From: Tubulanus polymorphus
Taxonomy: Eukaryota > Animalia > Nemertea
DNA length: 64,000 nt
Reading direction: 5' to 3'
Assembly: GCF_964204645.1 (NCBI RefSeq)
Contig: NW_027437431.1
Span: 1 to 64,000, forward strand
Made by a program: the position numbers and the translations under genes
The notes under the pieces: model-generated
The model's database searches: none
What the model was told of the DNA's origin: nothing
What the model saw: the letters and a program-made list of their open reading frames with translations, nothing else
In this document: in pieces, positions 4,417 to 45,471 of the stretch
Position numbering within the stretch: the first letter of the stretch is position 1
Layout: each line of letters starts with the position of its first letter

Positions 4417-5170
4417 TGGGGCTAATTCTCCAGCATTACGTCATAATGCTCGGGATTCCATGAGAAGAGATCACTTCCGGAGTCACTGAGGTCCAACTTC
4501 CTTGTGGGTGACGGACCTATTTTGAGAGTGCTCTCATCAAAATTATTTTGGTTCGTTATCGGTGGTCATCTACTGTTGTAAGGTGAAAAATATTATATAT
4601 TTATATTTGTTTACTTTTTCTTTACCTACTGTTGTAAGGTATGTTTATGCCATGGCGGCTCATAATAAATTAGATTTACTTGACATTGGGTCAGAAATTA
4701 CGGTCGCCAATGAGGACGAGTCAGCTTGTTCTGCTGGTCTTGTGGCTGACGAAATGTCGGTTCAACAGGCTATTGATAAAGGACGGAGTCAGTCTTTTCT
4801 CCTTCTGTCTGACTATTATGGGTCTTCAAATAAGAACACTCAGGCTGTAAGTGTTGATAAAAAAGATAAGGACAAAGCCGCTAAACTGAAAGTTATTCCT
4901 AAAATTGCTCGTCGAGTTGTTAGGTCAAAAAGCTCAGGTTCAGCTCAACCAGAGACTTTATCTGAAAGTCATGTCGATCCTGTTATAACAGAGTTTTTAG
5001 AGATGAAAAAGAGACCTGAGGCTTTAGAGTCTTAATATTTGCAAAATGATTATGATCGGTTACAGGATCATTGTATACGAGTATATCAATATGGCGGCTT
5101 AGAGTCAGACGCACAAATTTCGTGCTCGTTATATTTTCTCAATAATCGTTGTCCAAGTGATCGTAAGACA

Positions 5171-6565
5171 ATGGATGCTGTGCAAGAATCGTTATTAATA
5201 AGAGAGAATTCTGTTAAATTCAGCCTCAGTCAGTTTGGGAAGCAGAAGTTAGGACATCTGGATGTAGTAAATGCGTTAGCGAAATATAAAATTGACGTGA
5301 GTAAAATCCTGTCGATTCAGTTAACTAACTCTAACTGTATAATCACAGCCACTGACAAGGAAACAAAAAATCGTTTATCAAAGCTCCAACTTGTTATCAT
5401 GGATCGGCAAGTTAATTTCACCGATGTGGATGTTAATTACATTAATGTTAAGATAGTTGACGCTCCGATTGAAATGGACGACAAGGTGATCGTTGCGTTT
5501 TTATTGAAATACGGAGATTACGTGGACGGATCAATTAAAAGAGGTGTCATAAAAGGAACTCAGATATTTACAGGTACAAGGTATCTCCAGCTTCGTAACC
5601 TTGCAAACGTTATGCCGACATTTACAAAAATTGGAAATTTTCCAGTGAGATTGGATTGCGACTCTATATGTCATCTCTGTCTGAATTGTGATCACAATTC
5701 TTCAAATTGCCCGCGCCGACCGAACAATCGTTTATGTCACAACTGTAAATCGGCAGATCATTTTAAACGCGATTGTCCGTTGTTGAATGACCATGCTAAA
5801 CAAGAGAGTATTGGTCACCCGGTCACTGAAAGAGCTAATCTCCCAGGACCTGAAAGCACGCAAACAAGTGTAGAATCCGATAGAAACCAATCGCCTGATG
5901 TTGTCATTATTGGAGATTCGAACATGCGAGATCTCCAGTATCCACATAGTAGCAGCGCTGTCATCCACCATTCTGGAGCAGCCGCTGAAAATATTCAGTC
6001 GCTTTTAGAAAAAGCATCATCCCAAATACCGAATCTAGAATCCGTTAAGGAGGTCATCGTTCACATTGGTACCAATGACGTCAATCGCAACAAGTCCGAT
6101 ACCGATGCTATCAAAATGAACATTACCTTCGCCATCGCCAAAGTTCAGGAAAACTTTCCTTCCGCAAAAATATCACTTTCAAGTATCTTCCCTAAGAAAG
6201 GGAACTCAAACGCTGCGAGGGATTTCAATACTGCCGCCTGCGCAGTTAATTCATACATGGGGCGATTCTGCTCCAAACAGAACATCCTATTCATTGATAA
6301 TGACATCATTCTGAAACCCCACGGGGCTTTAAGAGATAGGTTTTACAACATTAGTGACAAATCGGGGATTCATTTGAACGAACTCGGGAAATCAACTGTT
6401 GCGAAGAACTTTGAATCGATGATCACTGCGATTACTACTGAAAACCACACTGAAGTTTTCAGTACCCCTGTGAATACAACGAAAAGAAAAGATCGATCTG
6501 AATCACAGACGCCACCAAGCGCAGGGAAAATAACCAAAAAGCCTTATATCGATGATGATCAATAA
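5171..6565 (+). CDS. LINE ORF1 with two CCHC zinc knuckles and an SGNH/GDSL esterase domain
   Basis: Knuckles CHLCLNCDHNSSNC and CHNCKSADHFKRDC. Esterase blocks IIGDSN, HIGTND and DKSGIHLN. First ATG inside the element is at 5171. Confidence 0.8.
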   Translation: MDAVQESLLIRENSVKFSLSQFGKQKLGHLDVVNALAKYKIDVSKILSIQLTNSNCIITATDKETKNRLSKLQLVIMDRQVNFTDVDVNYINVKIVDAPIEMDDKVIVAFLLKYGDYVDGSIKRGVIKGTQIFTGTRYLQLRNLANVMPTFTKIGNFPVRLDCDSICHLCLNCDHNSSNCPRRPNNRLCHNCKSADHFKRDCPLLNDHAKQESIGHPVTERANLPGPESTQTSVESDRNQSPDVVIIGDSNMRDLQYPHSSSAVIHHSGAAAENIQSLLEKASSQIPNLESVKEVIVHIGTNDVNRNKSDTDAIKMNITFAIAKVQENFPSAKISLSSIFPKKGNSNAARDFNTAACAVNSYMGRFCSKQNILFIDNDIILKPHGALRDRFYNISDKSGIHLNELGKSTVAKNFESMITAITTENHTEVFSTPVNTTKRKDRSESQTPPSAGKITKKPYIDDDQ

Positions 6566-6567
6566 CT

Positions 6568-9486
6568 ATGTTTGTACATGTTATGCATGACATTCCAGAC
6601 CTGATAGATAATTGTAATTACTATTTTTCGTCCGATTTCAACTTGAAATCGCACGATGACTTATTTAGTGTGTTTCATTCTAACATCCGAAGTGCCAAGA
6701 AAAATTTCGACTCGTTAGCTGACTACCTACATTTATTAAAGTTCAAATTTTCTGTAATCGGTCTGACTGAAACGTGGACTGATACTAATCACCCAAATGA
6801 ATGTTTATATAATCTGCCTGGCTATTCCGGTGTTTACCAGAGCAGGCTTAATAAAAAAGGAGGCGGAGTTGGTATTCTGGTTAATAATACTATTCCGTTT
6901 AAACGAAGGGAAGACCTCCATTTAGCAGAATCTCTCATTATAGAGATTCCACAAAGTAAATCATGCATGAAAACTGTTATCGGCGTTGTATATCGTGCAC
7001 CTGATACAAGTATAGCGGCACTTTTATCTGATTTTGAACAATTTGTAAGCCAAGTCGACAATGAAAAGCTACGTGTTATTATATTAGGTGACTTTAATAT
7101 TTATTTCGGTAAATACGGTGATAATTCACCAAATGATTCTTTCTTTAACTATGCAATAAGTAATTCTTTTTTCCCGCATATAAATTTACCAACTCGAGTA
7201 ACAGATACTACATCAACTGTTATTGACCATATATTGACCAATTTTAACGACAATTGCCAATCTCAAAGTGGTGTTTTCTTAGTTGATATATCAGACCACT
7301 ACCCAATTTTTGCTAGTTTTAACTGTATCTATAAAAGACATAAAACAAGTAATAATACTAAGTTAATCCATGATATAAATCCTAGGACCATTGAAAATTT
7401 CTCCCGTTCTTTGCTGACCAATGATTGGCAAAGTGTGTACGAGTATAGTGACCCTGAAGCGTCATGCACGGAATTTTATAAGATTATTAACAATTGTTTT
7501 GAGACGAGTTTTCCAATTAAATCTATACGTGATAAATCAAATTATAGCCATAAGCCGTGGATTACCACGGGAATAAAAAAATCGATTCGTTTCAAGGAAA
7601 AACTGTATAAAAAGTACTTACGAAAACGGACTAAAGAGAGGAAAGATAAATATAATAGACATAGAAATATTCTTAATTCTGTCATCAAGAAGAGTAAATA
7701 TTCATTTTATAGGGACAAATTTATAGCATGTAAATTAAACCCTAGAGAAATATGGCGAAACGTTAATTCTCTACTTAACAAAGGTAAACAAAATCCTGAG
7801 ATTAACTCAGAATTTCTTCTTAATGATAAAGTTCTAAAAAATGAGCAAGAAATTGCTGAAAGTTTCAATGAGTATTTTGTAAACGCTGCGCGGTCATTGG
7901 AATCTCAAATACCTATTTCCGAGAAAAACTTTAAAGATTACTTAGGTGAAAATGTATGTGAAAATTTTTTCCTCTCACCAACATGTACCCAGGAAATTGA
8001 ATTAATTGTCTCTAATTTCAAGTCAAAACCTTCAAGTGGCTTTGATAACATAAGTATGAAGTTACTTAAATCGATTATTTCTATAATTTCACAACCTCTA
8101 TGCCATATATTCAATTGCAGTTTCACTTCAGGGCAAGTGCCCAGTGCATTCAAAATAGCTCATGTTACTCCAATCTATAAAAGTGGAAATAATAATCTAT
8201 TCAGTAATTACCGTCCTATTTCCGTCTTGCCGTCTATATCAAAAATATTGGAAAAAATCGTATATGACAGACTTAACAAATTTTTTGAAAAACTCAAACT
8301 TTTTAATCAACACCAATTTGGTTTCAGGAAAAAGTACTCAACTACACTCGCTTATCTAGTGCCCTTGATAAGGGCCTTTTTACTGCAGGGGTATTTATTG
8401 ACCTGTCAAAGGCATTTGACACCCTTAAGTTTGATATCCTGATTTCTAAACTTGAGCACTATGGAATTCGTGGCATTCCGCTAAACTGGTTTCAAAGTTA
8501 TATCACAGGTCGAAAACAAGCGGTCAAGTATAAAAATGCTTTATCCTTAACTGCGGATATAACATCCGGTGTTCCACAAGGTTCCATACTAGGACCTATT
8601 TTGTTTCTAGTATACATAAACGACTGTCCTAATGCTTGTAAATTATTAGACTCTATATTTTTTGCTGACGATAGCAACTTTTTTTGTAGTAACTCTAATT
8701 ATAAAAAGTTAGAGGGCATTCTTAACCGAGAGTTAAATCAGCTCCTCAACTGGTTTAGAGCGAATCGATCGCCTTTCCGTTAATATAGATAAAACAAATT
8801 AAATTATTTTTGGCAACAGATTTTTTCCGGATCTAAATATACGCTTAGATGGTCAACCGATAAAAAGAGTAACAAGCACAAAATTTCTAGGCATAATTTT
8901 TGATCAAACTTTAACATGGAAGGAACACATCAATTTTGTTTGTAAAAAAGTCTCACGTGGCATTGGCATCATTAACCGGTTGAAAAATTTCTTATCTCCA
9001 GACATTTTGAAAAATTTATACCATTGTTTTGTCCATTCACATTTGGATTATGCCAATGTTATATGGGGAAATGCTTGTTGTACCTATTTAAACCCTCTTT
9101 TTGTTCTCCAGAAAAGAGCAATACGTACTGTAACGCATTCTGACTGGTTAGAACACACGTCACCAATTTTCAAAAGACTCAAAATCCTGAAATTATGTGA
9201 TATTTATAAACAACAGCTTGGAACTTTCACCTTCTGTCAAATTAATAATTTGTTACCTGACCTTTTTGAAGATTTCTTCATTTTTCGGCGTACTAGACCT
9301 AATTGGCGCAACACGCGCAGAATCAATGATCTTTTCATCGAATTTTCCAAAACTAATATAAAATCTAGAAGTATTAAAATTCAAGGTGCAAAATACTGGA
9401 ACAATCTACCATCTGAATTGAAAAATCAGCCCCATTTAAGTATATTTCGTTACAGTCTCAGAAGTCTGCTCTTGTCTAATTACTAG
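6568..9486 (+). pseudogene. LINE ORF2 (APE endonuclease plus reverse transcriptase), frameshifted
   Basis: APE motifs GLTETW, GGGVG, VYRAP, LGDFN, IDHI, SDHYP. RT motifs NYRPISVLP, QFGFR, DLSKAFD, GVPQGSILGP, FADD. Frameshifts or stops near 8355 and 8770-8800. Confidence 0.85.
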
Positions 9487-15529: not shown

Positions 15530-17559
15530 GTTACGGTCAAACTGTTCACGATGTAATGTTACAATATCCAGGTATCTAGGCATTTTTCCATGAAAGTTGA
15601 GGTGATTAGGTCACTGTCTTCATGTCTCCAAGGAAAATACAGCATCAACCTACTATGATAATACCTCTCAGGTTATTTCTGTACTGAAAATTTATGAGTT
15701 CGAATTACAGCAGGCTTAGCGCGTTGAGTTATGTGAATTTGTTCAATACGGTCGATGGTTTTAATAAACTGCTTGCTTTCAGGGTTCCAAGTGTGTCGAA
15801 AACCTTCTATAGAACTATAGTATGATTGATGATAGGTTTAGCATGGTAAAGATGAGACGCAGTGTCACGAGTTCTGTAGGTGATGTTAGCTGTCTGCAAA
15901 CTAAAGTTTTTGATGCTGGGGGCTTTGGAAAGGAGAATCCACACTTTTTACTTGTTTTTCAGCAGGATGGTGAATGAGTGTTTCTCGACTAGTATGACCA
16001 AAATAGACATTTGTTCATCATCATCAGGGATCGAAGCAGTGATGTAAGAATCAACATATTTCTGTACTTCTTCATCGTTTGAGTCAGATAGATGTGAAGT
16101 ATTCTTTATCCAGAAAACAGCATGAATATGAGGAAAACTGAAATGAGGATATATGAAAGTAAAAGATGCAATAATCACAGTAGGAAGTGTTAAACAAGTA
16201 AAAATTGAAGGATAACAAATATCAGTTTCATTGGAAATGAGATTGAATAATGGTGTTTGAGAAATCACCTCGCTGTAAGAACTCAACTCTATATGTATAT
16301 GCTGAAACTGTGCCAATAGGACCATCATCTTTTAGTAGCAGATGTTTGAAAAACAGCTGAACTCTGTAATCAAAGTGACGAGCAGCTGTTACAGGATTCT
16401 GGCGCAACCACTTATTTTCTTCTTCCCATGTCATAGCATTGACATCATCAACAGACAGATAAGACCCATACTGAGCTGCGATGATTTGTATTACATAAGG
16501 CCACTTGAGGTCAGCAGCAGAAAGTGTCAGAAAGAAGGTAAAGATGCCTAGTTGCCGAACCATAGCCAAAAGGTCATAAAACATCTTCTTCAGTAAGGAG
16601 GGGATCCGTGAATATTTTTCAGAAACTGATAACCATCATCAGATGATAATTTTAGGGTTTCTGGCTTTTTCAAAGACCCAGTCCTCACATCTGTTTCCAG
16701 TGTTACTTGATTATTTCTTCAAATGGCTATAGATATACAATCATTAATTTGCTTCATCTCCGTTACATGTTGAGCATAGAATAGGTATGGTATACACCTG
16801 GCAAATCATTGATTATATCCACACAAGCGTGCTTTGAAATATTGCTTCAGTGATAATATTAAGAGGCTTTTGATGCATCATGACCAAAAACTCCATTAGG
16901 GAAGAGTTGTGGGAAAGACAGAACATCACTGGCAGGATCATCGAGGATGCTCAGAGGTTTCTGTGCTTCTCCTGGAGCAATTTCTATAATTTCGTTTCCT
17001 TTATCGGTAGATGTTGTATCAACATTAACTGGAACATTGACAACTGTTTCAAGTATTGCATTTTGCTTTCCTCTAGGAAGAGCCATAATCTTCATGAAAG
17101 GAATTCTTTGTGATATCATAGTAGCTTCCAAATCAGATAAACCTTTGAATTCATCACTTAAAGGTGGAAGATCTAATTTGTTGGCCTTTGCTCCTGCAGG
17201 CATACATCCCCTTTTAATACTGTTATGGCAAGTATGGCAAATATATGTCAAGCCATCAGAACTAGGCAATGCATAACGGATAAGACACTCCTGTAATAAT
17301 GTATCAGGAGTGTTAACGTACTTTGAAGCACCAAAAGGAATGCAGGAAACTTTATACATCAGCATATGACAACAAATGCAGACTAAGGTTGGTCAACATG
17401 AAACAGAAGTTTCAAAGGTTCCCATACTAGAAGAATTGAACGTATTAATATTTTGTCGATATGAGCTTTGAAGCATGTTTTCTACTTTGTCCCGTTTACC
17501 ATTCTTTAAGCTTATTTTCTTCGACTGTAAGTGTAGTTCCTTTTCCTTTTTTTGTTGAA

Positions 17560-17885
17560 CAAGATCAGATCTGGTAAGGTTTTTACTACGTAGTTCCACA
17601 ATGCGTTCTGCTTGACGTTTAGCAGAATCAGATCTGGATGACTGCCGTTGTTGTTAGTCAGCCTTTTTCTTTTTCGCATTTAGCAGGATCAGATCTTGTT
17701 TTGTTTTTACTACGCAGTCCGATGACACGTTCTGCTCGACGTTTAGCAGGATAAGATCTGGATGACTGCCGTTGTTGTAAGTCAGCCTTTTTTCGTGTTT
17801 AGCAGGATCAGATCTGGTTTTGTTTTTACTATGCAGTCCGACGACACGTTCTGCTTGACGTTTAGTGGCATCAGATCTGGCTTTC
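17560..17885 (-). repeat. Coding tandem repeats in the Helentron N-terminal region
   Basis: Recurring GGATCAGATCTGG units that encode RSD(P/A/S)xKRQAER-like peptides. Confidence 0.55.
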
Positions 17886-31129: not shown

Positions 31130-33315
31130 TTTGGTGGTTTACCACAATCATAGAACATGTCAGCAGCTATGATTTTGTAATTGATTGTGAAAACGTTACC
31201 TCGTTACCAATTTAATATGGAAATACTAAGTATTCTACTATTCCAACGCCCCCTGGTGACCATATTCAAAACCCAATGACCTTAAAACTCATCATAATCA
31301 TAGAACATGTCATAAACTACAACTTTGCAATTGATCATGATAACAAAATATGTCTCGTTACCAATTTAATATGGAAATACTAAGTATTCTACTATTCAAT
31401 GCCCCCTGGTGACCATATTCAAAACCCAATAACCTTAAAACTCACCATAATCATAGAAAATGTCATAAACTACATCTTTGCAATTGATCAAGGTAACAAA
31501 ATATGCCTAGGTACCAATCTAATAAGGAAATACTAGGTTATTCTACTATTCAACGCCCCCTGGTGACCATATAGAATAACTAATGTCCTTAAAACTCACC
31601 ACAATCATAGATGATGTCATGAGCAACAACTTTGCAATTAATTATGGTAACAAAATATGCTTAGGTATCAATATAATGTGGAAAAACATTTTCCCACCTA
31701 CCAATGAGTACTGATGATACCAAGATGGCCGCCAATTGCGTCACAAATGGCCGATCAAAAATACCTGGCTCAGGTATAAAACAACCCTTTCCAAGGAATA
31801 CCCATCAAAAATTGCAATGAGAAATGGCAAACCAGTAGGAAGCTACAGGACTCAGAATTTGGGCCAAAATTGACATTTTTGGGCACTAAAAAGGTCATAG
31901 GACGGCCATCTTGAGTCCGATCGACCCAATTTTTCTTATGGTGATGGGCCCTGGGGGGATTCAAATATATATGAAAGATCAAGGTAATTGATTTAAGCGT
32001 CTTCAAAATTTCCCTCAAAAAGTGTAAAAAGTGCTGATTTTGACGAACAACAATGGCTGCCAGTCGGCCATCTTGAATCTGAGAGGGCCAGTTTTTGGGG
32101 TGAAGATGTGTCTAGGGTAGACACATGTATAAACCAAATATCAAGACATTACCTTGAAGCGTCTTCAAAACTTCCCAAAATAACTAGATTCCGTCTACGG
32201 ACGGACGAAAAGTGAACGCAATAGCCCGCTGGGACTAAAGTCCCAAGTGGGCTAAAAACCAATGACCTTGAAACTAACCACAATCATAGAACATTTCAGC
32301 AGCTACAATTTTGTAATCGATTGTGATAACAAAATATACCTCGTTACCAATTTAATATGGACATACTAAGTTATTCTACTATTCAATGCCCCTGGTGACC
32401 ATATTCAAAACCCAATGTCTTTGAAACTCACCACAATCATTGAATATGTTATGAGCTACAACTTTGCAATCGGTCATGGTAACAAAATATGCCTAGGTAC
32501 CAATATGATTAGGAAATACTAAGTTATTCTACTATTCAACGCCCCCTAGTGACCATATGGAATAACTAATGTCCTTGAAACTCACCACAATCATAGAGGA
32601 TGTCATGAGCTACAACTTTGCAATTGATTGTGGTAACAAAATATGCATTGGTACAAATATAATATAGAAATACTAAGATATTAACGCCAATGACCTTGAA
32701 ACTCACCACAATCATAGAACACTTTATAAGCTACAACTTTCTAATTCATTGTGGTCACAAAATATGCTTAGGAATCAATATAATGCCGAAAAACTTTTTC
32801 CCACCTACGAATGAGTACTGATGACACCAAGATGGCCGCCAATTGCGTCATAATTGGCTGATCAAAAATACCTGTCCCGGGTATAAAACATCCCTCTCCA
32901 AAGAAAACCCATCGCAAATTGCAATGAGAAATAGTAAACCAGTAGGAAGCTAAGGGACTCAGAATTCGGGCCAAAATTGACACTTTTGGGCACTAAATAG
33001 GTCATAGGATGGCCATCTTGAGGCTTATTGACCCAAGTTTTCTTATGCTAATGGGCCCTTGGGGGATTCAAATACATATGAAAGATCAAGGTAATTGATC
33101 AAAGCGTCTTCAAAATTTCCCTCAAAAAGTTCAAAAACGTGTAAAAAGTGCTAATTTTGGCGAACAACGATGTCTGCCAGTCGGCCATCTTGATTCTGAC
33201 AGGGCCAGTTTTTGGGCTGAAGATGTGTCTAGGGTAGATACATGTGTAACCCAAATATCAAGACATTTTATTAAAGCGTCTTCAAAACTTCTCAAAATAA
33301 CTGGATTCCGTTTAC
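31130..33315 (+). repeat. Two tandem non-autonomous Helentron-like (HINE/DINE-1-type) units with internal ~120-bp satellite arrays
   Basis: ~120-bp monomers (CTCACCACAATCATAGAACATGTC...CCCCTGGTGACCATAT) and a duplicated unique segment (about 31690-32200 vs 32790-33315). The first unit ends with ACGGACGGACG, a GGGACTAAAGTCCC hairpin and GCTAAAAA. Confidence 0.6.
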
Positions 33316-35313: not shown

Positions 35314-36079
35314 CTGAAAGTACATAGGTCATCTATGATAGAAATGCAAAAGCAGCCAAAATCATCACAATCTATTCATAATTAGGCACCCAGGGATAGA
35401 AAGCCCACTTGGTGAAATGCAATACAAAATAAACAGTGCTGTATCAAACTAATATTTGATCTCTAGATTTTCAGAGTGGAAATCGTCGTATTTGACCTCA
35501 ACGCGAGGTTCGAAATCATTCTCATCTGTGAGAAGCGTTACGGTCGTTCACGTCAGAGTGGAGAACAATGCGATAGACCTCGATGTGAGGTTTGTAACCT
35601 TACTCGCCGGTATGAGAATCATCGGACTTAGCCTCAGCGTGAGGACCGTGACTTTTCTCGTCCGTGAGAAGGTCGTGTCGACCTCAGCATGAGGTTCGTA
35701 ACCATTCTCATTCTAACTCAATTCACATTTATGGCCCCATGCTGTGGAATATGACCCGATGAAATTTCTCAATGTCATATAATCTCAATGAAATTTCATT
35801 GATGTCAAATGCCATTTGAGATTGTCAAATAAATCTAAGAAAGCACAAAACTGTAGTTCAACCGTTTTCATGAGTTATTTAGAACCTAGCAGGAAATTGT
35901 ATCAGCTACTTTTCATGTATGGTTGAAGCCTGCTATGATAGTTGACAGCTGAGAAATTTGGCAATAGCTTTTTCTTGCTTCTGTATTTTCTTCTTCTTGG
36001 GATAATGATAGGAAATTACCGACTGGAAACCGCCCATGAAATATTACAATTTTTGTAGCTAAAATTTGTATTTCCGAGT

Positions 36080-37320
36080 AGTACTTACCCCTTCCTATGG
36101 TGGGAATGATGGGAAATACAAAAGAATTCTGGGGTTGTCGCATAGAAGGTTGAGAAGTGGTAGGAACCATTTCTGAGCTGGCTAATATGGAGCTACCAGA
36201 ACTATGTTGCAATTGACTGATCTCTCTACTTGATCCAGCAGGCACCGGAGGACTGGTGTGGGAGGGAACGCACATGTATGCATCCCTGACCAGTCCAGAG
36301 AGAAGGCATCGACCCCCATGCTTCCACGTCTGAAAACGGGAAATGAACAGCGGACACCTCCGATTGAACTGGGTGGCAAACAGATCCAGCAGAGGATTGC
36401 CGAACATGTCTCGAACCCGATTGGCCACTTTTTTGGTGGTGGACCCATTCTGTCGCAATAGCTTGACCTTGACAAGAAAAAGCATCGGCCATCATGTTCC
36501 TTTTCCCTGCTAGATGTGCCACAGTCAGGGAAACGCCCTTTGTCTGGCAAAGAAGAATTTAGGCTGACAGGTCCATGTGGGTTTCTGAGTGAGCGCCCCC
36601 TTGATTCTGAAGGTAGGCCTTCACTGTTCAGTTGTCCGTGGCTAACCAAAGGTGGTGGCCCTCCACTCTCCTGTGAAAGAACTTCAGAGCCTTCAACACG
36701 GCCAGAAGTTCCAGGAAATTTATGTGGTTGGTGGCCTCTTAGCGAGACCACTTTCTGGCCTTGACTTCGTTCTCCAGATGCGTCCTCGACCCTTGGTGGC
36801 TGGGATCCGTGAATACACGAACAGGAGCCTACGACTAAGATTCATAGTTGCCGCCCACCAACGAAGGTCTGATCTTAGATCCGTTAGAGGTACGGGAATC
36901 AAGGTCTCCCAGCTGCCCTTCGACCGAGACCAGTAGACTTTCCAAAACTGTTGCAAGCGCCTGCTTCTGAGGCGGCGTAAGGGCATCATCAGACCGATGG
37001 AGCTAATGGAGCCTAGAAGCCTTGACCAGTAACGAGCTGTATTCGGGGTTGCGGAAACTCCCGCTACAGCTTCTTGAAGTTTGGCTTGAGCCATGGATGA
37101 AAAGACCTTGCCGATTCGAAGATCGAAGTCCATGCTGAGATACCTGAACTGTTGAGCCGGCGTCAGCTGAGAGTTCCCCGTTTACACAGAACCCTAGCTG
37201 GTGAACTAAGTCCAAGACTGAGGTCATTGCCTCCCGACATTCTTGAGCCGAGTTTTCGACTACTTACCAGTCGTCGAGGTAAATGAACAGTCAAACACCC
37301 CTGGACTGAAGCACCTTCTG
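36080..37320 (-). pseudogene. DIRS retrotransposon RT/RNase H (and downstream MT-like) fragment
   Basis: FIYLDDW, LGFCVN, DLRWW, HKFPG/INFLEL region, HLAGKRNMMADAFS, DLFAT, VDAFSLDWSG..AFPP, VLVAPY. GC-rich and frameshifted. Confidence 0.75.
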
Positions 37321-37328
37321 AAATGACT

Positions 37329-38389
37329 TGTGTGAAGTCAATGTATATGTTATATGTAAAGTTATTTGTTTGTATAAAGTGTAACGGTAGTTGGTCGTTC
37401 TTTTGTTCGTTCTCTTGTCAGTATTCCAGTATTCGGTAGTATTGTGTTGTATTGTTGTTGTTGTCTGGTATTGTTATTTTCCCGCCTCAAAGTTTATTGG
37501 CATATCCGTTTCCGGGTTACTCCCGCATTTTGTGTAATATTTTTGGCACTTGGTCGTTCGAGCTCCTCGGAGTATCAGTGCTTGTCTGTGTGCTTGCTAT
37601 ATTGGAATCTCCCTCAGTCGTCATGTAAGTTTTGTGCAAATTTATATTAATTAATTATTGTAACTGTTTACAACATTTCCTACCCTTATAATATTTGTTT
37701 TTGTAGAAACGTGTAATATTCGTCGTTTGTTTTTTGTCGTCGTAATTTGAAAATAAACGCATCAATGAGAAGTATCGACTGACTTCGTTTGTCATCTGCA
37801 ACACTGTTTATGACGAGGGAGATGGCATCACTTGACGAGAAGGTTAAATCGAGAGCGGGTTTCAAGGCCAACGTCACAAAAAGAAGCAACATCCTTCGGA
37901 AGGCGTTAAAAGAAGGGCTACCGTATGATGATGTAAAGAAATTAATCGACGACGTTACACAATCGTGGGAAAAGTTCGAAAACGCGCACGACGCCGTTCA
38001 TTGTCTGTATATCGAAGATGATGACATTGAAAATTCATATATGTATTTCGATCGGGAAGAGAAAAAGTATCGCGAGTTGCTAGAAAAGGCAACCAAAGTT
38101 CAAAGTCCTGTGGTTTCGGATTCCGTAGCTGCGTCAACAGGTAATAGTGATAGTGATCTTGCTGCGATGGTAAAAAGTCTAAAACGAATGGCTTTACCAC
38201 AACAAGAAGTGCCAATTTTCGGCCATGATCCTATTGAATATTGCTATTTCGTAAAAGCTTTTGAAAATATAATCGAAAGTAAAACCGATTGCAGTAGCCA
38301 AAGGCTGTATTATCTAATGCAATATACGCGCGGTGAGGTGAAAGAGTTAGTGCGAAGCTGCATGGAGCAACCACCAGACATCGGGTACT
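37329..38389 (+). mobile_element. BEL/Pao LTR retrotransposon 5' part (putative LTR plus gag), cut by the viral array
   Basis: Abrupt change from DIRS sequence to a TG-initiated T-rich segment with AATAAA (about 37751), followed by gag. LTR boundaries are approximate. Confidence 0.6.
37810..38389 (+). pseudogene. BEL/Pao gag (DUF1759-like), truncated
   Basis: LPQQEVPIFGHDPIEYCYFVKAFENIIE...QRLYYLMQYTRGEVKELVRSC...GY. The frame is intact up to the junction and then stops in viral sequence at 38424. Confidence 0.8.
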
Positions 38390-38659
38390 CACAGCCCGTG
38401 GTGGTCTGTGACAGTGGAGGTTAGTTAAAGTTCGAGGCGTGTGACTAGTCGGGGGGAATAACATAGGCGGCTACGCCGCGATAGTTAGTCGGCAAGGTCG
38501 GCTGCGCCTCCGGCGGTACAGATTACATCTGAGTGTATTAGTCTACCAACGGAAGCCCAAACCCTAAATAATATTAGTCGGAAAAATCTGAGTTAGAGGG
38601 TCGCAACCGGTTCAAACAATTTAACATCTCATACAGGTGACTCGTACTTTTAGTATCAA

Positions 38660-39742
38660 ATGCCATCGTTGAAACGGAGGCGAAACGGATTTACATTGCC
38701 CGGTTTACCACATTGCGGTCCATTCAACGATATATCCAGTTACAAAAGCGAAGGAATAGACGAAGTGTGCCGTATTCACGACAAAGAGTACGGAGAACTG
38801 CAAGAGAAATACGGTAAATGGGCTCCGTACTTCCAGTACAATTCAGCGGATCAGACATTTTTGGACAGTGCTTCGGGTGTGAACGGTGTAGGTGCGAGAC
38901 TAACGTCGAGTGTATTCAGAGCAAAACGGGCGTTATTTCCAACAATGGCGGAAGAACCGGCATTAAAAAGATCAAAGAGAACGGCGGAAACGGGGAGCGA
39001 AGAAGGGAACGCCCAACAAATGATGACTCACATGACGGAAAAGCCGTCACTACACTATAAGAGCGTGTTAATACATAGAGGTTACCTAACGTTTACGAAT
39101 TGGGATCCGGACCAGGCGTACGGAGCATTCGGAAGAAAAGCGAAGATTTACTGTTCGGGAATGAGAACGTTTAACTTCGGATTAAAAGAAAGAGAAGGAT
39201 GGAGAAGATTTCCAGCCAGCATGGATACCATAGGGATGTGGGATCAATTCAAAGTGACTTCGGGTAAAATAACGTTATACCCCATAGCGAGCGAAAGCGC
39301 GGTAAGCTCTGATTCGAACGCGTTCCAAGATCCGATAGTATGGTTAAAGACGGCAGCCGATTGGGACTTGAAAGTGAAAGACTCGGCCGCCAATACTCAC
39401 CAGGGATCGCCGTACGCCGATATAAATTTATTAACTCAAAAGCAAAGCTACAGGCAATACGAATTAGGTCGGGGATGCGTTAGCATGGGATTACCCATGT
39501 CGACCATAAGAACCGAAATACAAGACACGAGTGACCCGACAGACGTTACCAGATCGGTGAATATCGGGGATAACTCGGCGTGGTTAGACGGAGCGTACCG
39601 CGATCATTGGCAATCAGCCGCGCTCATTATGCAAATGTTAGTGTACAACGATTCGATACACGCGGATTTAAACACGCCCCATACAGAAATTATCGTTCCA
39701 GCGGAAGTGGAGTTTACGATGATTCATAGAAACAGAGTATAA
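38660..39742 (+). CDS. Putative capsid protein with N-terminal parvovirus VP1u-type phospholipase A2 (copy 1)
   Basis: GFTLPGLPHCGPFN (Ca-loop), DEVCRIHDKEY (HDxxY) and PYFQYNSADQTFL. Basic NLS-like runs KRRR and KRSKR. WDQFKVTSGKITLYP resembles a CRESS jelly-roll strand motif. Confidence 0.8.
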   Translation: MPSLKRRRNGFTLPGLPHCGPFNDISSYKSEGIDEVCRIHDKEYGELQEKYGKWAPYFQYNSADQTFLDSASGVNGVGARLTSSVFRAKRALFPTMAEEPALKRSKRTAETGSEEGNAQQMMTHMTEKPSLHYKSVLIHRGYLTFTNWDPDQAYGAFGRKAKIYCSGMRTFNFGLKEREGWRRFPASMDTIGMWDQFKVTSGKITLYPIASESAVSSDSNAFQDPIVWLKTAADWDLKVKDSAANTHQGSPYADINLLTQKQSYRQYELGRGCVSMGLPMSTIRTEIQDTSDPTDVTRSVNIGDNSAWLDGAYRDHWQSAALIMQMLVYNDSIHADLNTPHTEIIVPAEVEFTMIHRNRV

Positions 39743-39743
39743 T

Positions 39744-40052
39744 ATGATAATAACTTTCCTATTCTTGGCATCCGGTTTCCTACACGAGTACAAGTGGCAC
39801 GTATATACTAAACGTATCATGAGTAGAACGCAACGATTCATGAAAATAAGAGACGAAGTGGCGAACGAGTGGGTCATCAAACACGACGTCAACGAAAATC
39901 GGGTACTAAGGGAACAACACATTACAGAAGTAGCGAAAAGGATATTCTACTACCGGGAAAAACAATGGGAACTAAGTCGAGAAACTGGTCGTTCACAACC
40001 GACAATCGAGCAGAAGTCTGCCTCGAAAGTCAAATCGGAACGTCAACAGTAA
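39744..40052 (+). CDS. Small accessory ORF with a hydrophobic N-terminus, overlapping the Rep start (copy 1; present in all 8 copies)
   Basis: ATG lies 1 nt after the capsid stop (TAA-T-ATG). Starts MIITFLFLASGFL, then a charged helical-looking tail. Confidence 0.5.
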   Translation: MIITFLFLASGFLHEYKWHVYTKRIMSRTQRFMKIRDEVANEWVIKHDVNENRVLREQHITEVAKRIFYYREKQWELSRETGRSQPTIEQKSASKVKSERQQ

Positions 40053-41368
40053 CCGTACACATAGGTCCGCAAGAAGATCCGGACGGTTACGCGCACGGAG
40101 TAATAATAACGTTAGCCAAAGGTACGCAACGACCGTTGAAACAGAGCGAAAACGCGATTAGACAACTGTTACACTCGCTAGGCATTAGATTAGTTAACGA
40201 CTACATCAAACCGACGGAAAAATTAGGCGCCTACATTCAATACATGTACAAAGAAGCCGACAAAATACCGGAAGAATTACGAGGTCACTTGGAGGTGAAA
40301 AACTCGAAAACGAACGACGACTTTTTCGGCCAAAAGATAAACGCGTTATACGCGGAATACCAACAAAGACCGGGACTAGCCGATTGGACGGCGAGAATAG
40401 TGAAGGAGTTCGGTTACAACGTACCCGAACTGAAAGTGAAAAGATCGTTTAAAAATTGGCCGGTAAGGGTAAAAGATATTACGAGAAACGCGGGTGACTT
40501 TGCGTTGAAAATGACGGACATAACAGAGCCGAAATTGACGCCGGAAATGGGAGTAGAAATTATAACGAAATGCCTGGATAACGTTCAATCGGCGATGTGG
40601 GATGGTAAACATATAAATAAACGTGACCTGCTGGTAATATTGGTGAACGCGGCGATCGAGGGAGGTACGAGTAAAATCAGAAACGCGCCTCATATAATAT
40701 TTTACGGAGATGCCGGGTCTGGTAAATCGATGTTGGCTAAATTATTGTTCCCGGATTCGATTACGAGCCAAATGCCGACGGATTCGGAAGGCGTAGGAGC
40801 GTGCGAGATGGGAGGAGGACAACGTATATTCAAAGTCGACGACGCCAGCGACGCTTTTTGGCACAACTCGGGGTTGTTGTCGATGATACTCGCGATGTAC
40901 CAGTCCACCTGGGAGGCAAAAGTACATTCTAGTAAACAAAGTAACCCGCCGTGTATGACGGTAATTACGACGAATTGTAAGAATCCGTTAGAGAAGTTCG
41001 CCTCTACAGTAGCTTTGGAAGCTGTGGAAAGGAGATTCTTGTCGGTGTATTTCAAAGGTAAAGCAGATTTGGGAAACGTAGTTTACGACATTACGCCGGG
41101 CGTATGCGAAGAAATATTAGAAATAATAGTTAACGAAATTAGACAAGGTAGATATCTGGACAACCAAGTCCACTTGGACGACTGGGAAACGGATGATGAC
41201 GTGGTGATACCGTTCGAAAAAGAAAGAAACTTCATCGAAGCGTACCACGTAGGTCACATGTCGGACGCGATGCATCAGAATATGGAGGAAAGGTTAAAAC
41301 GTAAACGTAAAGAAGAAGACGATACGAATGAAACTCTTAAGTTCGCTAAACGCGGGGAAATCCTGTAG
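39965..41368 (+). CDS. rep: Replication initiator Rep: HUH endonuclease plus SF3 helicase (copy 1)
   Basis: Motif I RNWSFTTDN, motif II-like GYAHGVI, motif III YMYKE. Walker A GDAGSGKS, Walker B FKVDD, motif C VITTN, Arg finger AVERRF. The first ATG (acaATGg) is at 39965; the track start at 39869 is GTG. Confidence 0.85.
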   Translation: MGTKSRNWSFTTDNRAEVCLESQIGTSTVTVHIGPQEDPDGYAHGVIITLAKGTQRPLKQSENAIRQLLHSLGIRLVNDYIKPTEKLGAYIQYMYKEADKIPEELRGHLEVKNSKTNDDFFGQKINALYAEYQQRPGLADWTARIVKEFGYNVPELKVKRSFKNWPVRVKDITRNAGDFALKMTDITEPKLTPEMGVEIITKCLDNVQSAMWDGKHINKRDLLVILVNAAIEGGTSKIRNAPHIIFYGDAGSGKSMLAKLLFPDSITSQMPTDSEGVGACEMGGGQRIFKVDDASDAFWHNSGLLSMILAMYQSTWEAKVHSSKQSNPPCMTVITTNCKNPLEKFASTVALEAVERRFLSVYFKGKADLGNVVYDITPGVCEEILEIIVNEIRQGRYLDNQVHLDDWETDDDVVIPFEKERNFIEAYHVGHMSDAMHQNMEERLKRKRKEEDDTNETLKFAKRGEIL

Positions 41369-41379
41369 TTGGCAATGTA

Positions 41380-41385
41380 AATAAA
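41380..41385 (+). terminator. Polyadenylation signal after Rep (repeated every 3406 bp)
   Basis: AATAAA 11 nt after the Rep stop codon. Confidence 0.55.
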
Positions 41386-41425
41386 TCTATAAATAGAATT
41401 CTATAAATTTCTCAATTCGTTACTA

Positions 41426-41539
41426 CCAGTGGACCCGCAGACCCGCGGACCCACTGGCTGTTCGTTTTTCATGGTCTACCCCCCCTTATATATATAATAA
41501 GGAAAGAGAAGGAGGGTCCGCGGGTCCGCGGGTCTGCGG
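41426..41539. promoter_or_regulatory. Candidate origin/promoter: inverted 8-bp iterons flanking an AT-rich hairpin
   Basis: GGACCCGC-AGACCCGC-GGACCC, then CCTTAT[ATATATA]ATAAGG, then GGGTCCGC-GGGTCCGC-GGGTCTGC. 41435-41452 is the exact reverse complement of 41522-41539. Confidence 0.6.
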
Positions 41540-41620
41540 TATTCTCTAAACCGAGAATCGAAAAGTTAATGAAACTAGGTCGGAAAGATAACAAATTATT
41601 ATTCAATATATCCTAAAGCT

Positions 41621-41676
41621 TCTACGAGGTTGGTCACGCGCTCGCTACGCTCGCCAGCGTGACACAACCTCGTGGA
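41621..41676. promoter_or_regulatory. Long stem-loop in the viral intergenic region
   Basis: TCTACGAGGTTG-GTCACGC pairs with GCGTGAC-A-CAACCTCGTGGA (about 19 bp). Loop GCTCGCTACGCTCGCCA. Confidence 0.6.
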
Positions 41677-42065
41677 CGCTCCAAAGATAATGAGTATGTG
41701 CTTGATAATGAGTGAATTAATTGGGAACCCTATAGCGGGTAAAAGGTAAGAAGTAGAAATTATAGGGTTAGGGGTTATCATTATACTCGGATGCCCACAG
41801 CCCGTGGTGGTCTGTGACAGTGGAGGTTAGTTAAAGTTCGAGGCGTGTGACTAGTCGGGGGGAATAACATAGGCGGCTACGCCGCGATAGTTAGTCGGCA
41901 AGGTCGGCTGCGCCTCCGGCGGTACAGATTACATCTGAGTGTATTAGTCTACCAACGGAAGCCCAAACCCTAAATAATATTAGTCGGAAAAATCTGAGTT
42001 AGAGGGTCGCAACCGGTTCAAACAATTTAACATCTCATACAGGTGACTCGTACTTTTAGTATCAA

Positions 42066-43148
42066 ATGCCATCGTTGAAACGGAGGCGAAACGGATTTAC
42101 ATTGCCCGGTTTACCACATTGCGGTCCATTCAACGATATATCCAGTTACAAAAGCGAAGGAATAGACGAAGTGTGCCGTATTCACGACAAAGAGTACGGA
42201 GAACTGCAAGAGAAATACGGTAAATGGGCTCCGTACTTCCAGTACAATTCAGCGGATCAGACATTTTTGGACAGTGCTTCGGGTGTGAACGGTGTAGGTG
42301 CGAGACTAACGTCGAGTGTATTCAGAGCAAAACGGGCGTTATTTCCAACAATGGCGGAAGAACCGGCATTAAAAAGATCAAAGAGAACGGCGGAAACGGG
42401 GAGCGAAGAAGGGAACGCCCAACAAATGATGACTCACATGACGGAAAAGCCGTCACTACACTATAAGAGCGTGTTAATACATAGAGGTTACCTAACGTTT
42501 ACGAATTGGGATCCGGACCAGGCGTACGGAGCATTCGGAAGAAAAGCGAAGATTTACTGTTCGGGAATGAGAACGTTTAACTTCGGATTAAAAGAAAGAG
42601 AAGGATGGAGAAGATTTCCAGCCAGCATGGATACCATAGGGATGTGGGATCAATTCAAAGTGACTTCGGGTAAAATAACGTTATACCCCATAGCGAGCGA
42701 AAGCGCGGTAAGCTCTGATTCGAACGCGTTCCAAGATCCGATAGTATGGTTAAAGACGGCAGCCGATTGGGACTTGAAAGTGAAAGACTCGGCCGCCAAT
42801 ACTCACCAGGGATCGCCGTACGCCGATATAAATTTATTAACTCAAAAGCAAAGCTACAGGCAATACGAATTAGGTCGGGGATGCGTTAGCATGGGATTAC
42901 CCATGTCGACCATAAGAACCGAAATACAAGACACGAGTGACCCGACAGACGTTACCAGATCGGTGAATATCGGGGATAACTCGGCGTGGTTAGACGGAGC
43001 GTACCGCGATCATTGGCAATCAGCCGCGCTCATTATGCAAATGTTAGTGTACAACGATTCGATACACGCGGATTTAAACACGCCCCATACAGAAATTATC
43101 GTTCCAGCGGAAGTGGAGTTTACGATGATTCATAGAAACAGAGTATAA
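42066..43148 (+). CDS. PLA2-capsid, copy 2
   Basis: Translation identical to copy 1. Confidence 0.8.
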   Translation: MPSLKRRRNGFTLPGLPHCGPFNDISSYKSEGIDEVCRIHDKEYGELQEKYGKWAPYFQYNSADQTFLDSASGVNGVGARLTSSVFRAKRALFPTMAEEPALKRSKRTAETGSEEGNAQQMMTHMTEKPSLHYKSVLIHRGYLTFTNWDPDQAYGAFGRKAKIYCSGMRTFNFGLKEREGWRRFPASMDTIGMWDQFKVTSGKITLYPIASESAVSSDSNAFQDPIVWLKTAADWDLKVKDSAANTHQGSPYADINLLTQKQSYRQYELGRGCVSMGLPMSTIRTEIQDTSDPTDVTRSVNIGDNSAWLDGAYRDHWQSAALIMQMLVYNDSIHADLNTPHTEIIVPAEVEFTMIHRNRV

Positions 43149-43370
43149 TATGATAATAACTTTCCTATTCTTGGCATCCGGTTTCCTACACGAGTACAAG
43201 TGGCACGTATATACTAAACGTATCATGAGTAGAACGCAACGATTCATGAAAATAAGAGACGAAGTGGCGAACGAGTGGGTCATCAAACACGACGTCAACG
43301 AAAATCGGGTACTAAGGGAACAACACATTACAGAAGTAGCGAAAAGGATATTCTACTACCGGGAAAAACA

Positions 43371-44774
43371 ATGGGAACTAAGTCGAGAAACTGGTCGTTC
43401 ACAACCGACAATCGAGCAGAAGTCTGCCTCGAAAGTCAAATCGGAACGTCAACAGTAACCGTACACATAGGTCCGCAAGAAGATCCGGACGGTTACGCGC
43501 ACGGAGTAATAATAACGTTAGCCAAAGGTACGCAACGACCGTTGAAACAGAGCGAAAACGCGATTAGACAACTGTTACACTCGCTAGGCATTAGATTAGT
43601 TAACGACTACATCAAACCGACGGAAAAATTAGGCGCCTACATTCAATACATGTACAAAGAAGCCGACAAAATACCGGAAGAATTACGAGGTCACTTGGAG
43701 GTGAAAAACTCGAAAACGAACGACGACTTTTTCGGCCAAAAGATAAACGCGTTATACGCGGAATACCAACAAAGACCGGGACTAGCCGATTGGACGGCGA
43801 GAATAGTGAAGGAGTTCGGTTACAACGTACCCGAACTGAAAGTGAAAAGATCGTTTAAAAATTGGCCGGTAAGGGTAAAAGATATTACGAGAAACGCGGG
43901 TGACTTTGCGTTGAAAATGACGGACATAACAGAGCCGAAATTGACGCCGGAAATGGGAGTAGAAATTATAACGAAATGCCTGGATAACGTTCAATCGGCG
44001 ATGTGGGATGGTAAACATATAAATAAACGTGACCTGCTGGTAATATTGGTGAACGCGGCGATCGAGGGAGGTACGAGTAAAATCAGAAACGCGCCTCATA
44101 TAATATTTTACGGAGATGCCGGGTCTGGTAAATCGATGTTGGCTAAATTATTGTTCCCGGATTCGATTACGAGCCAAATGCCGACGGATTCGGAAGGCGT
44201 AGGAGCGTGCGAGATGGGAGGAGGACAACGTATATTCAAAGTCGACGACGCCAGCGACGCTTTTTGGCACAACTCGGGGTTGTTGTCGATGATACTCGCG
44301 ATGTACCAGTCCACCTGGGAGGCAAAAGTACATTCTAGTAAACAAAGTAACCCGCCGTGTATGACGGTAATTACGACGAATTGTAAGAATCCGTTAGAGA
44401 AGTTCGCCTCTACAGTAGCTTTGGAAGCTGTGGAAAGGAGATTCTTGTCGGTGTATTTCAAAGGTAAAGCAGATTTGGGAAACGTAGTTTACGACATTAC
44501 GCCGGGCGTATGCGAAGAAATATTAGAAATAATAGTTAACGAAATTAGACAAGGTAGATATCTGGACAACCAAGTCCACTTGGACGACTGGGAAACGGAT
44601 GATGACGTGGTGATACCGTTCGAAAAAGAAAGAAACTTCATCGAAGCGTACCACGTAGGTCACATGTCGGACGCGATGCATCAGAATATGGAGGAAAGGT
44701 TAAAACGTAAACGTAAAGAAGAAGACGATACGAATGAAACTCTTAAGTTCGCTAAACGCGGGGAAATCCTGTAG
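43371..44774 (+). CDS. rep: Rep (HUH + SF3 helicase), copy 2
   Basis: Translation identical to copy 1. Confidence 0.85.
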   Translation: MGTKSRNWSFTTDNRAEVCLESQIGTSTVTVHIGPQEDPDGYAHGVIITLAKGTQRPLKQSENAIRQLLHSLGIRLVNDYIKPTEKLGAYIQYMYKEADKIPEELRGHLEVKNSKTNDDFFGQKINALYAEYQQRPGLADWTARIVKEFGYNVPELKVKRSFKNWPVRVKDITRNAGDFALKMTDITEPKLTPEMGVEIITKCLDNVQSAMWDGKHINKRDLLVILVNAAIEGGTSKIRNAPHIIFYGDAGSGKSMLAKLLFPDSITSQMPTDSEGVGACEMGGGQRIFKVDDASDAFWHNSGLLSMILAMYQSTWEAKVHSSKQSNPPCMTVITTNCKNPLEKFASTVALEAVERRFLSVYFKGKADLGNVVYDITPGVCEEILEIIVNEIRQGRYLDNQVHLDDWETDDDVVIPFEKERNFIEAYHVGHMSDAMHQNMEERLKRKRKEEDDTNETLKFAKRGEIL

Positions 44775-45471
44775 TTGGCAATGTAAATAAATCTATAAAT
44801 AGAATTCTATAAATTTCTCAATTCGTTACTACCAGTGGACCCGCAGACCCGCGGACCCACTGGCTGTTCGTTTTTCATGGTCTACCCCCCCTTATATATA
44901 TAATAAGGAAAGAGAAGGAGGGTCCGCGGGTCCGCGGGTCTGCGGTATTCTCTAAACCGAGAATCGAAAAGTTAATGAAACTAGGTCGGAAAGATAACAA
45001 ATTATTATTCAATATATCCTAAAGCTTCTACGAGGTTGGTCACGCGCTCGCTACGCTCGCCAGCGTGACACAACCTCGTGGACGCTCCAAAGATAATGAG
45101 TATGTGCTTGATAATGAGTGAATTAATTGGGAACCCTATAGCGGGTAAAAGGTAAGAAGTAGAAATTATAGGGTTAGGGGTTATCATTATACTCGGATGC
45201 CCACAGCCCGTGGTGGTCTGTGACAGTGGAGGTTAGTTAAAGTTCGAGGCGTGTGACTAGTCGGGGGGAATAACATAGGCGGCTACGCCGCGATAGTTAG
45301 TCGGCAAGGTCGGCTGCGCCTCCGGCGGTACAGATTACATCTGAGTGTATTAGTCTACCAACGGAAGCCCAAACCCTAAATAATATTAGTCGGAAAAATC
45401 TGAGTTAGAGGGTCGCAACCGGTTCAAACAATTTAACATCTCATACAGGTGACTCGTACTTTTAGTATCAA

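Follow-up and report, generated by a model that had tools for sequence, protein, structure and literature searches.

A probably intact Rep from an unclassified lineage of small DNA viruses, lacking the first histidine of motif II, in a tandem array on a Tubulanus polymorphus contig

Floreoviria comprises the HUH-S3H small DNA viruses and is defined by a two-domain Rep (PMC13595969). In this work, the first 64,000 nucleotides of contig NW_027437431.1 from the nemertean Tubulanus polymorphus (assembly GCF_964204645.1), referred to as the window, were analysed with respect to a 467-aa Rep encoded on the forward strand. According to the structural model and its fold matches, this protein combines an HUH endonuclease with a superfamily 3 (SF3) helicase, but its motif II reads GYAHGVI, with tyrosine where the first metal-binding histidine is expected. 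The reading favoured here, with a probability of about 0.7, is that the protein is an intact Rep from an unclassified lineage of small DNA viruses where the loss of the first histidine is inherited and common, and that it has likely kept its nicking activity with a single histidine in the metal site.

The closest kinds in print appear to be the RepE1 cressviruses and the circular parvovirus-like contigs. The former are described as CRESS-like (circular Rep-encoding ssDNA) elements with a papillomavirus-like helicase, endogenised beside retrotransposon sequence in invertebrates (Buck et al., 10.1101/2024.03.25.586562), and the present element, if its array is integrated, resembles them in these respects. 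RepE1 is defined there by BLASTp E-values of 1e-6 to 1e-12 to E1, whereas the best value among 22 family Reps was 0.002 (0.45 for the query) against a small database of 65 E1 proteins, which are not RepE1 sequences themselves. Their capsids belong to other classes and phospholipase A2 (PLA2) is not mentioned in the main text of that source, whereas the VP of this unit has a PLA2 domain. Papillomavirus E1 and polyomavirus large T antigen (Papovaviricetes) share with the query the layout of oligomerisation domain (OD) and helicase. Their origin-binding domains (OBD) are described as lacking all three HUH motifs (PMC6668415), whereas the query keeps motifs I and III and half of motif II, and motifs I and III, Glu37 and His44 are conserved in its family.

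Circovirus-type CRESS viruses (Arfiviricetes), such as porcine circovirus 2 (PCV2), share with the query a compact nuclease of about 100 aa, motif I, an upstream glutamate and YxxK; as in Cressdnaviricota, motif I (UUTU) lies on strand 1 and YxxK on a helix. The PCV2 site (HUQ) also has one histidine, although PCV2 loses the second and the query the first. Circovirus-type Reps are also the nearest of three reference sets by ATPase core profile, and the Atlas neighbours of the capsid domain give a lead in the same direction. Unlike them, the query family has a longer spacing between the catalytic tyrosine and Walker A, a PLA2 on the capsid protein and no Viral_Rep match, and none of three canonical nonanucleotide patterns was found on a stable hairpin of the unit.

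Members of Parvoviridae have linear single-stranded genomes of 4-6 kb (PMC6537627), and a parvovirus of about 3 kb (PMC13426907) and circular parvovirus-like contigs (10.1101/2024.03.25.586562) have also been described. The unit studied here, at 3,406 bp and head-to-tail, lies outside the family range. Like parvoviruses, it has an N-terminal PLA2 on VP (a feature that is optional in that family), a helical subdomain near the helicase and a small accessory open reading frame (ORF), and its relatives carry long hairpins in two orientations. Unlike them, it has VP before Rep on one strand, a short nuclease, no Parvo_NS1 match and a small capsid domain; monosense parvoviruses usually have NS before VP. 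Furthermore, an endogenous head-to-tail array of 29 copies of a 1.1-kb NS1 piece has been reported in whitefly (PMC12297876), and a PLA2 cluster was found among the dark-matter circles of Tisza 2020 (PMC7000223).

Motif II in the Rep and its homologues

The main features of the gene are the following:

39965-41368, forward strand: Rep, 467 aa, with HUH-type nuclease, oligomerisation/helical region, SF3 helicase and acidic-basic tail
40073-40105, forward strand: Glu37 and motif II (G41-YAH-GVI47), with a conserved Glu, a variable first position and the conserved His44
40241-40255, forward strand: motif III, Y93-M-Y-K96-E97 (YMYKE, residues 93-97), with predicted catalytic Tyr and Lys, on model helix 87-95
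40706-40729, forward strand: Walker A, GDAGSGKS (residues 248-255), of the SF3 helicase, with K254 in all 24 of the 24 aligned rows that extend there

A first-pass annotation, made from the letters alone, had pointed out CRESS-like motifs I and III, a motif II with tyrosine for the first histidine, and intact SF3 motifs in a protein of 467 aa. All of these were found in the frame: motif I (RNWSFTTDN, residues 6-14, with WSFTT on model strand 7-12), motif II (residues 41-47, the codon of Tyr42 being 40088-40090), the helicase motifs GDAGSGKS, KVDD, AKVHS, ITTN and ERRF, and RLKRKRK in the tail (443-449). The annotation had also stated that motif II is the same in all copies. The proteins of the seven full copies are indeed identical, and the eighth copy, which the window end truncates, begins in the same way; being identical, they count as one observation and not as eight.

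The AlphaFold2 model (predicted local distance difference test, pLDDT, 85.7) shows HUH and SF3 folds. Strand 27-36 ends with Glu37, strand 43-50 carries motif II, and Tyr93 belongs to the helix of motif III, which is the arrangement given for Reps in PMC10288648. The nuclease domain resembles the RepB OBD (Z 8.2, root-mean-square deviation (rmsd) 2.8, 92 aligned residues). No circovirus, geminivirus or parvovirus nuclease domain was among the 50 matches listed in either of the two structure comparisons, both lists being filled by matches to the helicase. In the profile alignment (hhalign), x-A-H-G falls on H-L-Q-G and Glu37 on the upstream glutamate (GEE...HLQG) of circovirus-type Reps, and the register of motif II is thus backed by both profile and model, which rule out another segment as motif II. 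The nuclease profile matched circovirus-type Reps with 57% probability (E 1e-4, 86 columns) and Parvovirinae with 2%, in agreement with the CRESS-like character of motifs I and III.

A scan of 1.84 billion proteins returned 48 Rep homologues at E<=0.001, 18 of them at E<=1e-30, with identities of 22-42%. Considering these homologues, the model confidence and the two folds, the Rep is more than a chance reading. The query and the 26 homologues with the nuclease region were aligned (A1, 27 rows), leaving out the other 22, which matched downstream only. Names were looked up for 10 homologues and none was informative. A word-based search with the Rep found no homologue and profile A1 found one protein; scans of IMG/VR with Rep, VP, P0006, P0017 and alignment A3 gave no relatives, and PDB sequence searches with Rep and A1 gave matches at Walker A level or none. 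Viral_Rep, Gemini_AL1, Rep_N, Parvo_NS1 (PF01057) and PPV_E1_C matched none of the 27 rows at E<=0.1, while Pfam RNA_helicase matched one. PF01057 recognised five of five NS1 controls, and with 0/27 here the family-level NS1 homology of the SF3 domain that a member of Parvoviridae should show is not seen. Conversely, the family hidden Markov model scored at most 8.7 bits on 60 NS1 proteins, all of Parvovirinae type.

Ten of the 27 rows have His at position 42; the other 17 have Thr, Leu, Ala, Ser, Gly, Tyr, Gln, Cys, Pro or Glu there. The first-pass annotation had proposed to collect homologues for codon 40088-40090, and the first histidine is absent from the query and from 16 of the 26 aligned homologues, including the two best matches, P0004 (GTAH) and P0005 (GTVH). 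The remaining catalytic positions are strongly conserved (E37 and H44 in 25/27 rows each, Y93 and K96 in 26/27 each), and all four are kept in 15 of the 17 His-less rows at about 30% identity, the exceptions being P0008 and P0010. Y90 is present in 17/17 His-less rows. Residue 43 is Ala in 13 of these 17, and Arg (8) or His (2) in the ten two-histidine rows; as the middle residue follows the branch, neither branch is a textbook HUH. The HUH/HUQ signature of Cressdnaviricota is accordingly not seen, since the query has x-A-H and the two-histidine rows have no hydrophobic middle residue.

In a tree of 24 rows (three short rows of A1 were left out), the presence of the histidine requires two changes, as opposed to a mean of 7.9 when labels were shuffled, and none of 500 shuffles was as low. 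The query falls in a His-less group of eight (support 88/90, not starred), and eight two-histidine rows form a starred clade. Since the loss is clustered on the tree, it is almost certainly a trait of the lineage and not a lesion of one element.

A wider tree of 61 helicase rows recovered the family as one clade (SH-like approximate likelihood ratio test, SH-aLRT, 98) on a long branch. The phylogeny suggested in the first-pass annotation thus delivered a clade of its own but no position with respect to the 13 CRESS, 15 parvovirus and 11 papillomavirus rows, a narrow set that left out densoviruses, hamaviruses and most CRESS families. The reference sets were drawn from IMG/VR by Walker A patterns, 18 of the sequences being checked by Pfam, and the papillomavirus labels rest on Walker A pattern and contig size.

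Central region, helicase and capsid gene

40256-40690, forward strand: central region (residues 98-242), with a helical bundle (117-163), a linker, and helices plus a hairpin (176-234)
38660-39742, forward strand: VP, 360 aa, with a parvoviral-type PLA2 (residues 10-89) and a C-terminal domain of about 235 aa
39744-40052, forward strand: 102-aa small ORF whose end overlaps the beginning of Rep, with no family match

The central region had been described as a long insert of about 150 aa between motif III and Walker A. The distance was correct (155 aa from Tyr93 to Gly248, 161 aa to Lys254), but the term insert was not: the spacing is 151-178 aa in all 24 A1 rows that hold both motifs (three incomplete rows were excluded), so this stretch is a normal part of the protein throughout the family. 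The reference values are 83-95 aa in circovirus-type Reps (10 of 13 measurable) and 175-231 aa in Parvovirinae (44 of 60 measurable).

By structure comparison, the central region resembles the oligomerisation and helical subdomains of papillomavirus, adeno-associated virus (AAV) and other SF3 helicases. The best helicase match among those listed was bovine papillomavirus E1 (model 190-426, Z 13.1, rmsd 3.4, 183 aligned), and AAV2 Rep40 (model 112-420, Z 12.1, rmsd 6.1, 232 aligned; Z 12.1-12.6 over the Rep40 entries) and B19 NS1 (Z 10.5-11.4) also matched. RepB OBD+OD aligned with residues 2-174 (Z 8.0, rmsd 7.9, 140 aligned), while PCV2 Rep matched over the ATPase core only (Z 8.6, 124 aligned). 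SF3 helicases of the D5 type and of phages also contain this helical subdomain (Z 10-11), and hence it is not diagnostic and does not prove kinship with parvoviruses. The likeness is structural only, as the region before Walker A matched none of the reference profile sets (probability under 1%). The ATPase core profile scored 56 against CRESS (96%), 40 against papillomaviruses and 39 against parvoviruses, all below the 59-80 found among the three references. Regarding these data, the helicase does not look simply CRESS-like in build.

The N-terminus of VP matched PF08398 above the cut-off (E 2.4e-11; parvovirus VP1 N-termini give E 1e-12), and both the HD motif and the downstream D motif of the PLA2 are there. 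The C-terminal domain is likely a single jelly-roll capsid. The nearest ESM Atlas clusters of residues 110-360 are Cressdnaviricota/Circo_capsid (score 0.93-0.95), which is a lead that neither fold nor profiles confirmed: the single-sequence fold reached a pLDDT of only 33, and the VP profile matched neither seven circovirus-type Caps nor partial parvoviral VPs. Furthermore, the PDB sequence search with VP alignment A4 gave no match, and the word-based search found no VP homologues. The VP stop abuts the start of the small ORF, so any genome end must fall after Rep and the gene order is VP first.

Genome organisation, array and host flank

38390-64000, forward strand: head-to-tail array of the 3,406-bp virus unit, from period match and blastn, running off the window end
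41380-41385, forward strand: likely polyadenylation signal AATAAA, 11 nt past the Rep stop
41425-41539, no strand assigned: imperfect inverted repeat, GGACCCGC-type units flanking an A/T-rich core, a candidate for the origin or for a hairpin of the right end
41617-41680, no strand assigned: hairpin of 64 nt (-22 kcal/mol over 80 nt), the second candidate for an origin or a terminal hairpin
37789-38391, forward strand: host-side ORF cut by the array, with a 2-nt overlap (CA) at 38390

The array covers 25,611 bp of the window and contains at least 7.5 unit copies with a single variant base (55538). Each unit carries on one strand VP, the 102-aa ORF, Rep and AATAAA, followed by 700 bp of non-coding DNA; all three ORFs are open in the near-identical copies. 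The arms of the 115-nt inverted repeat (41432-41452/41514-41534) are 95% complementary (-31.4 kcal/mol over 120 nt). No Rfam match was found in 36000-45000. GC content is 45% in the array versus 37% in the flank. The unit (38390-41795) also has a CpG observed/expected ratio of 1.54 versus 0.83 in the flank, and its coding strand shows a strong A and G skew.

Relatives with genome context were found at 22 metagenome loci, which are non-independent (few related assemblies, two Rep types). In 17 of them VP shares the strand of Rep and is located 135-175 nt upstream of it, and in none is it on the opposite strand; four loci have no upstream cover or VP match, one is rearranged, and four of the 22 show a further VP downstream. 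The PLA2 is present in the VP of the P0015 type and absent from that of the P0017 type (L014:4181-5779), so the family has seen a gain or a loss of this domain. In the position of the small ORF, relatives carry an ORF of 119-235 aa without sequence similarity. Palindromes of 190-280 nt follow Rep in the relatives (-119.6 kcal/mol in L008), at six loci, with an asymmetric bubble in one orientation in L007, L008, L010 and L011 and in the inverse one in L003 and L012. Two bubble orientations resemble the flip-flop of parvoviral ends (PMC12297876), although such an inversion could also come from assembly or host recombination. Terminal hairpins of Parvoviridae measure 120-600 nt; the palindromes of the relatives measure 190-280 nt and the hairpins of the query 115 and 64 nt.

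An additional overprinted ORF of about 230-240 aa was seen in the 3' part of Rep in relatives (L001:3016-3729, L003:1600-2316 and others), without a Pfam match; the window unit has no such ORF on that strand.

Concerning the host side, the cut ORF is presumably the gag of a Bel/Pao retrotransposon, a likeness without Pfam support. It continues without virus in host contigs of runs X1, X2 and X3, and it is multicopy, with several variants in X3. The junction is about 110 nt beyond the second hairpin and not at a hairpin. Four runs of one study contain the unit, and no RNA dataset is among the runs listed as containing it. In X1 the unit is a self-closing contig (returning after 3406) with a depth of 1980 versus 77-124 in the flanks; in X2, where the contig also closes on itself, the depths are 332 and 11, and in X3 1107 and 36. 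A self-closing contig is also expected from a tandem array. The virus-to-gag depth ratio was 16, 29 and 31 in three runs of two samples, contig depth being a poor measure of copy number. X4 has the unit without the flank. X6, which bears the same species label but comes from a different study, has reads on the flank and zero depth over 41064-41900, about 12% of that run having been read; X5 (a small share on three short bins only) was not used.

Diverged relatives of the unit occur under the same species label, in X6 reads and in an X1 contig of single-copy depth (38710-39993, 40082-40111, 40787-40880). Some of these sequences touch the motif II codons, and the X6 reads cover portions of VP and of the small ORF. 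Moreover, an X2 contig over 40810-41626 has a depth of 153, versus 332 elsewhere in the unit, and stops at the second hairpin; it may represent a second variant or a hairpin isomer.

The flank is AT-richer and holds pieces of long interspersed nuclear elements (LINE) and other retroelements, as in an animal genome. A high-copy host repeat lies left of the cut ORF (35928-37425; its depth is about 1,000 in X6 and reaches thousands in X1; ORFs without Pfam match). A LINE-type retrotransposon occupies 4562-8442 on the forward strand, with a zinc knuckle and GDSL esterase ORF (5039-6565) and an endonuclease/partial reverse transcriptase ORF (6568-8442). A retroviral-type aspartyl protease ORF is at 612-1448 on the reverse strand, and short tandem arrays are at 31205-32795 (154-bp units) and 17545-17880 (124-bp units).

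Activity, rival explanations and significance

The Rep is predicted, with good though not full confidence, to be an active nickase. In the proposed mechanism, Glu37 and His44 would bind Mg/Mn, with water or an acidic residue close by (Asp40 and Glu97 are candidates) in place of the absent ligand, and Tyr93, assisted by Lys96, would attack a site within either non-coding hairpin. Unwinding of the template would fall to the SF3 ring, to which the central helical region contributes, and copying round a circular or end-joined template would give head-to-tail concatemers. One concatemer may have joined, likely very recently, the host retrotransposon ORF at 38390, away from the hairpins, which would have left about 16-31 arrayed units for each copy of the flank. 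Flexible sets of metal ligands have precedents: PCV2 Rep binds Mn through Glu48, His57 and Gln59, that is, with one histidine, and the Rep of wheat dwarf virus recruits Glu110, located after motif III; Lys99 may be the base (10.1101/2020.09.01.278671). No report of an HUH site without the first histidine was found in the open-access literature searched. The altered metal coordination put forward in the first-pass annotation for a new Rep lineage is a prediction; the lineage itself is supported by the shared loss and the conserved catalytic residues.

Several observations weigh against this interpretation. Tyr at position 42 is found only in the query (1/27), and there is no universal replacement ligand, with Asp four residues before His44 in 9/17 His-less rows and an acid at 97 in just 3/17. 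P0010, a near tree neighbour, has lost Glu37, His44, Tyr93 and Lys96 and yet keeps a full helicase, and P0008 has lost two of these residues, so dead nucleases do occur near the query, whose own placement is supported at just 85/80 and 88/90. No canonical nonanucleotide lies on a stable hairpin of the unit, according to three nonamer patterns with one mismatch allowed. All 16 of the 16 Rep frames that show motif II at the context loci are of the two-histidine kind, and thus gene order and hairpins come from two-histidine relatives. Finally, none of 12 contig pieces from X1-X4 spans the host-virus junction at 38390. On a separate matter, P0010 may represent a switch to an origin-binding domain.

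Four other explanations were considered. The first-pass annotation had proposed, as an alternative to a new lineage, that a single H-to-Y point change in one element disabled nicking before amplification and stabilised the array. Tyr at 42 is indeed unique to the query, ten homologues have His there, and identical copies cannot date the change. Nevertheless, this idea is very improbable and already looks largely refuted on the alignment: P0004, P0005 and the seven rows that group with the query in the tree lack the histidine, the query thus standing among His-less relatives of about 30% identity, the tree needs just the two changes given above, Ala43 fits the His-less pattern and not the His group, and the rest of the unit is undamaged. 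It is also unlikely, though less so, that in the His-less branch the HUH domain only binds the origin without cutting, as in papilloma- and polyomaviruses, with the unit replicating as a small double-stranded circle. The missing histidine in 17/27 rows, the helicase fold closest to E1 among the matches listed (tied with AAV Rep within 1 Z unit), the self-closing contig, the absence of a canonical nick site and the state of P0010 would suit such a change of function, but 15 of 17 His-less rows keep E37, H44, Y93 and K96, whereas the papilloma- and polyomavirus domains are described without all three motifs (PMC6668415), and no closeness to E1 was seen by BLASTp or profile.

A very divergent parvovirid, with a linear genome that ends in hairpins and replicates by the rolling-hairpin mode, its end-joined concatemers being what is seen here, is a possibility that we consider doubtful. 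The PLA2 of the type found in the VP1 unique region, the relatives' palindromes with their bubble one way at four loci and inverted at two, a helicase build like that of AAV Rep40 and B19 NS1, and the printed 3-kb parvovirus (PMC13426907) and circular contigs (10.1101/2024.03.25.586562) speak for it. On the other hand, Parvo_NS1 and Rep_N match no row, the profiles lean to CRESS in both nuclease (57% vs 2%) and ATPase core (56 vs 39), motif III is YxxK, the capsid domain is about 235 aa and VP comes first. In addition, the query hairpins are short, the X1 contig is unbroken at them, and the hairpin inversion has the other possible sources mentioned above. As for the state of the array, an infection may have supplied free circles or rolling-circle concatemers, and the assembler or a single chimeric read may have linked them to host DNA, an option that deserves attention even if it is the less likely one. 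The missing bridge across 38390, host contigs that are uninterrupted in X1, X2 and X3 while virus contigs continue as a circle, the near-perfect identity of copies, their absence from X6 and the unit without flank in X4 would agree with it. However, the virus-to-gag ratio is similar between runs, as a fixed copy number would give (contig depth being a poor measure), links of low depth are dropped when contigs are built and the interrupted ORF has many copies, and relatives occur in long contigs beside retrotransposon pieces (an integrase in L019). Since the steady ratio favours a fixed array and the missing bridge a free form, true integration into the host is only somewhat favoured.

As for classification, on the tests run the family appears placeable neither in the families of Cressdnaviricota nor in Parvoviridae, and it reads as an HUH-SF3 small DNA virus lineage. 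More tentatively, it might be an undescribed family- or order-level lineage of animal single-stranded DNA viruses between CRESS viruses and parvoviruses (nuclease and capsid of CRESS size, parvovirus-like helicase build, PLA2, flip/flop hairpins and capsid gene first), endogenising as whole-genome arrays and with a large xUH-nicking branch. The family-wide central region, the PLA2 on the capsid gene and the parvovirus-like hairpins of the relatives had not been part of the first-pass annotation.

These results would widen the known range of HUH active sites: HUQ, with the second histidine lost, is known, but the open-access literature searched gave no case of a branch-wide loss of the first histidine in which the other catalytic residues are retained. 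The family offers natural one-histidine and two-histidine enzymes for comparison. As it is invisible to Pfam and word-based searches, it has probably been missed in animal genomes and viromes. Parvoviruses have been proposed to originate from CRESS viruses (PMC6668415), and the mix of traits in this family bears on that proposal. Moreover, a near-identical whole-genome array in the samples of one study, absent from another animal with the same label, may be a rare view of endogenisation, or of infection, in progress.

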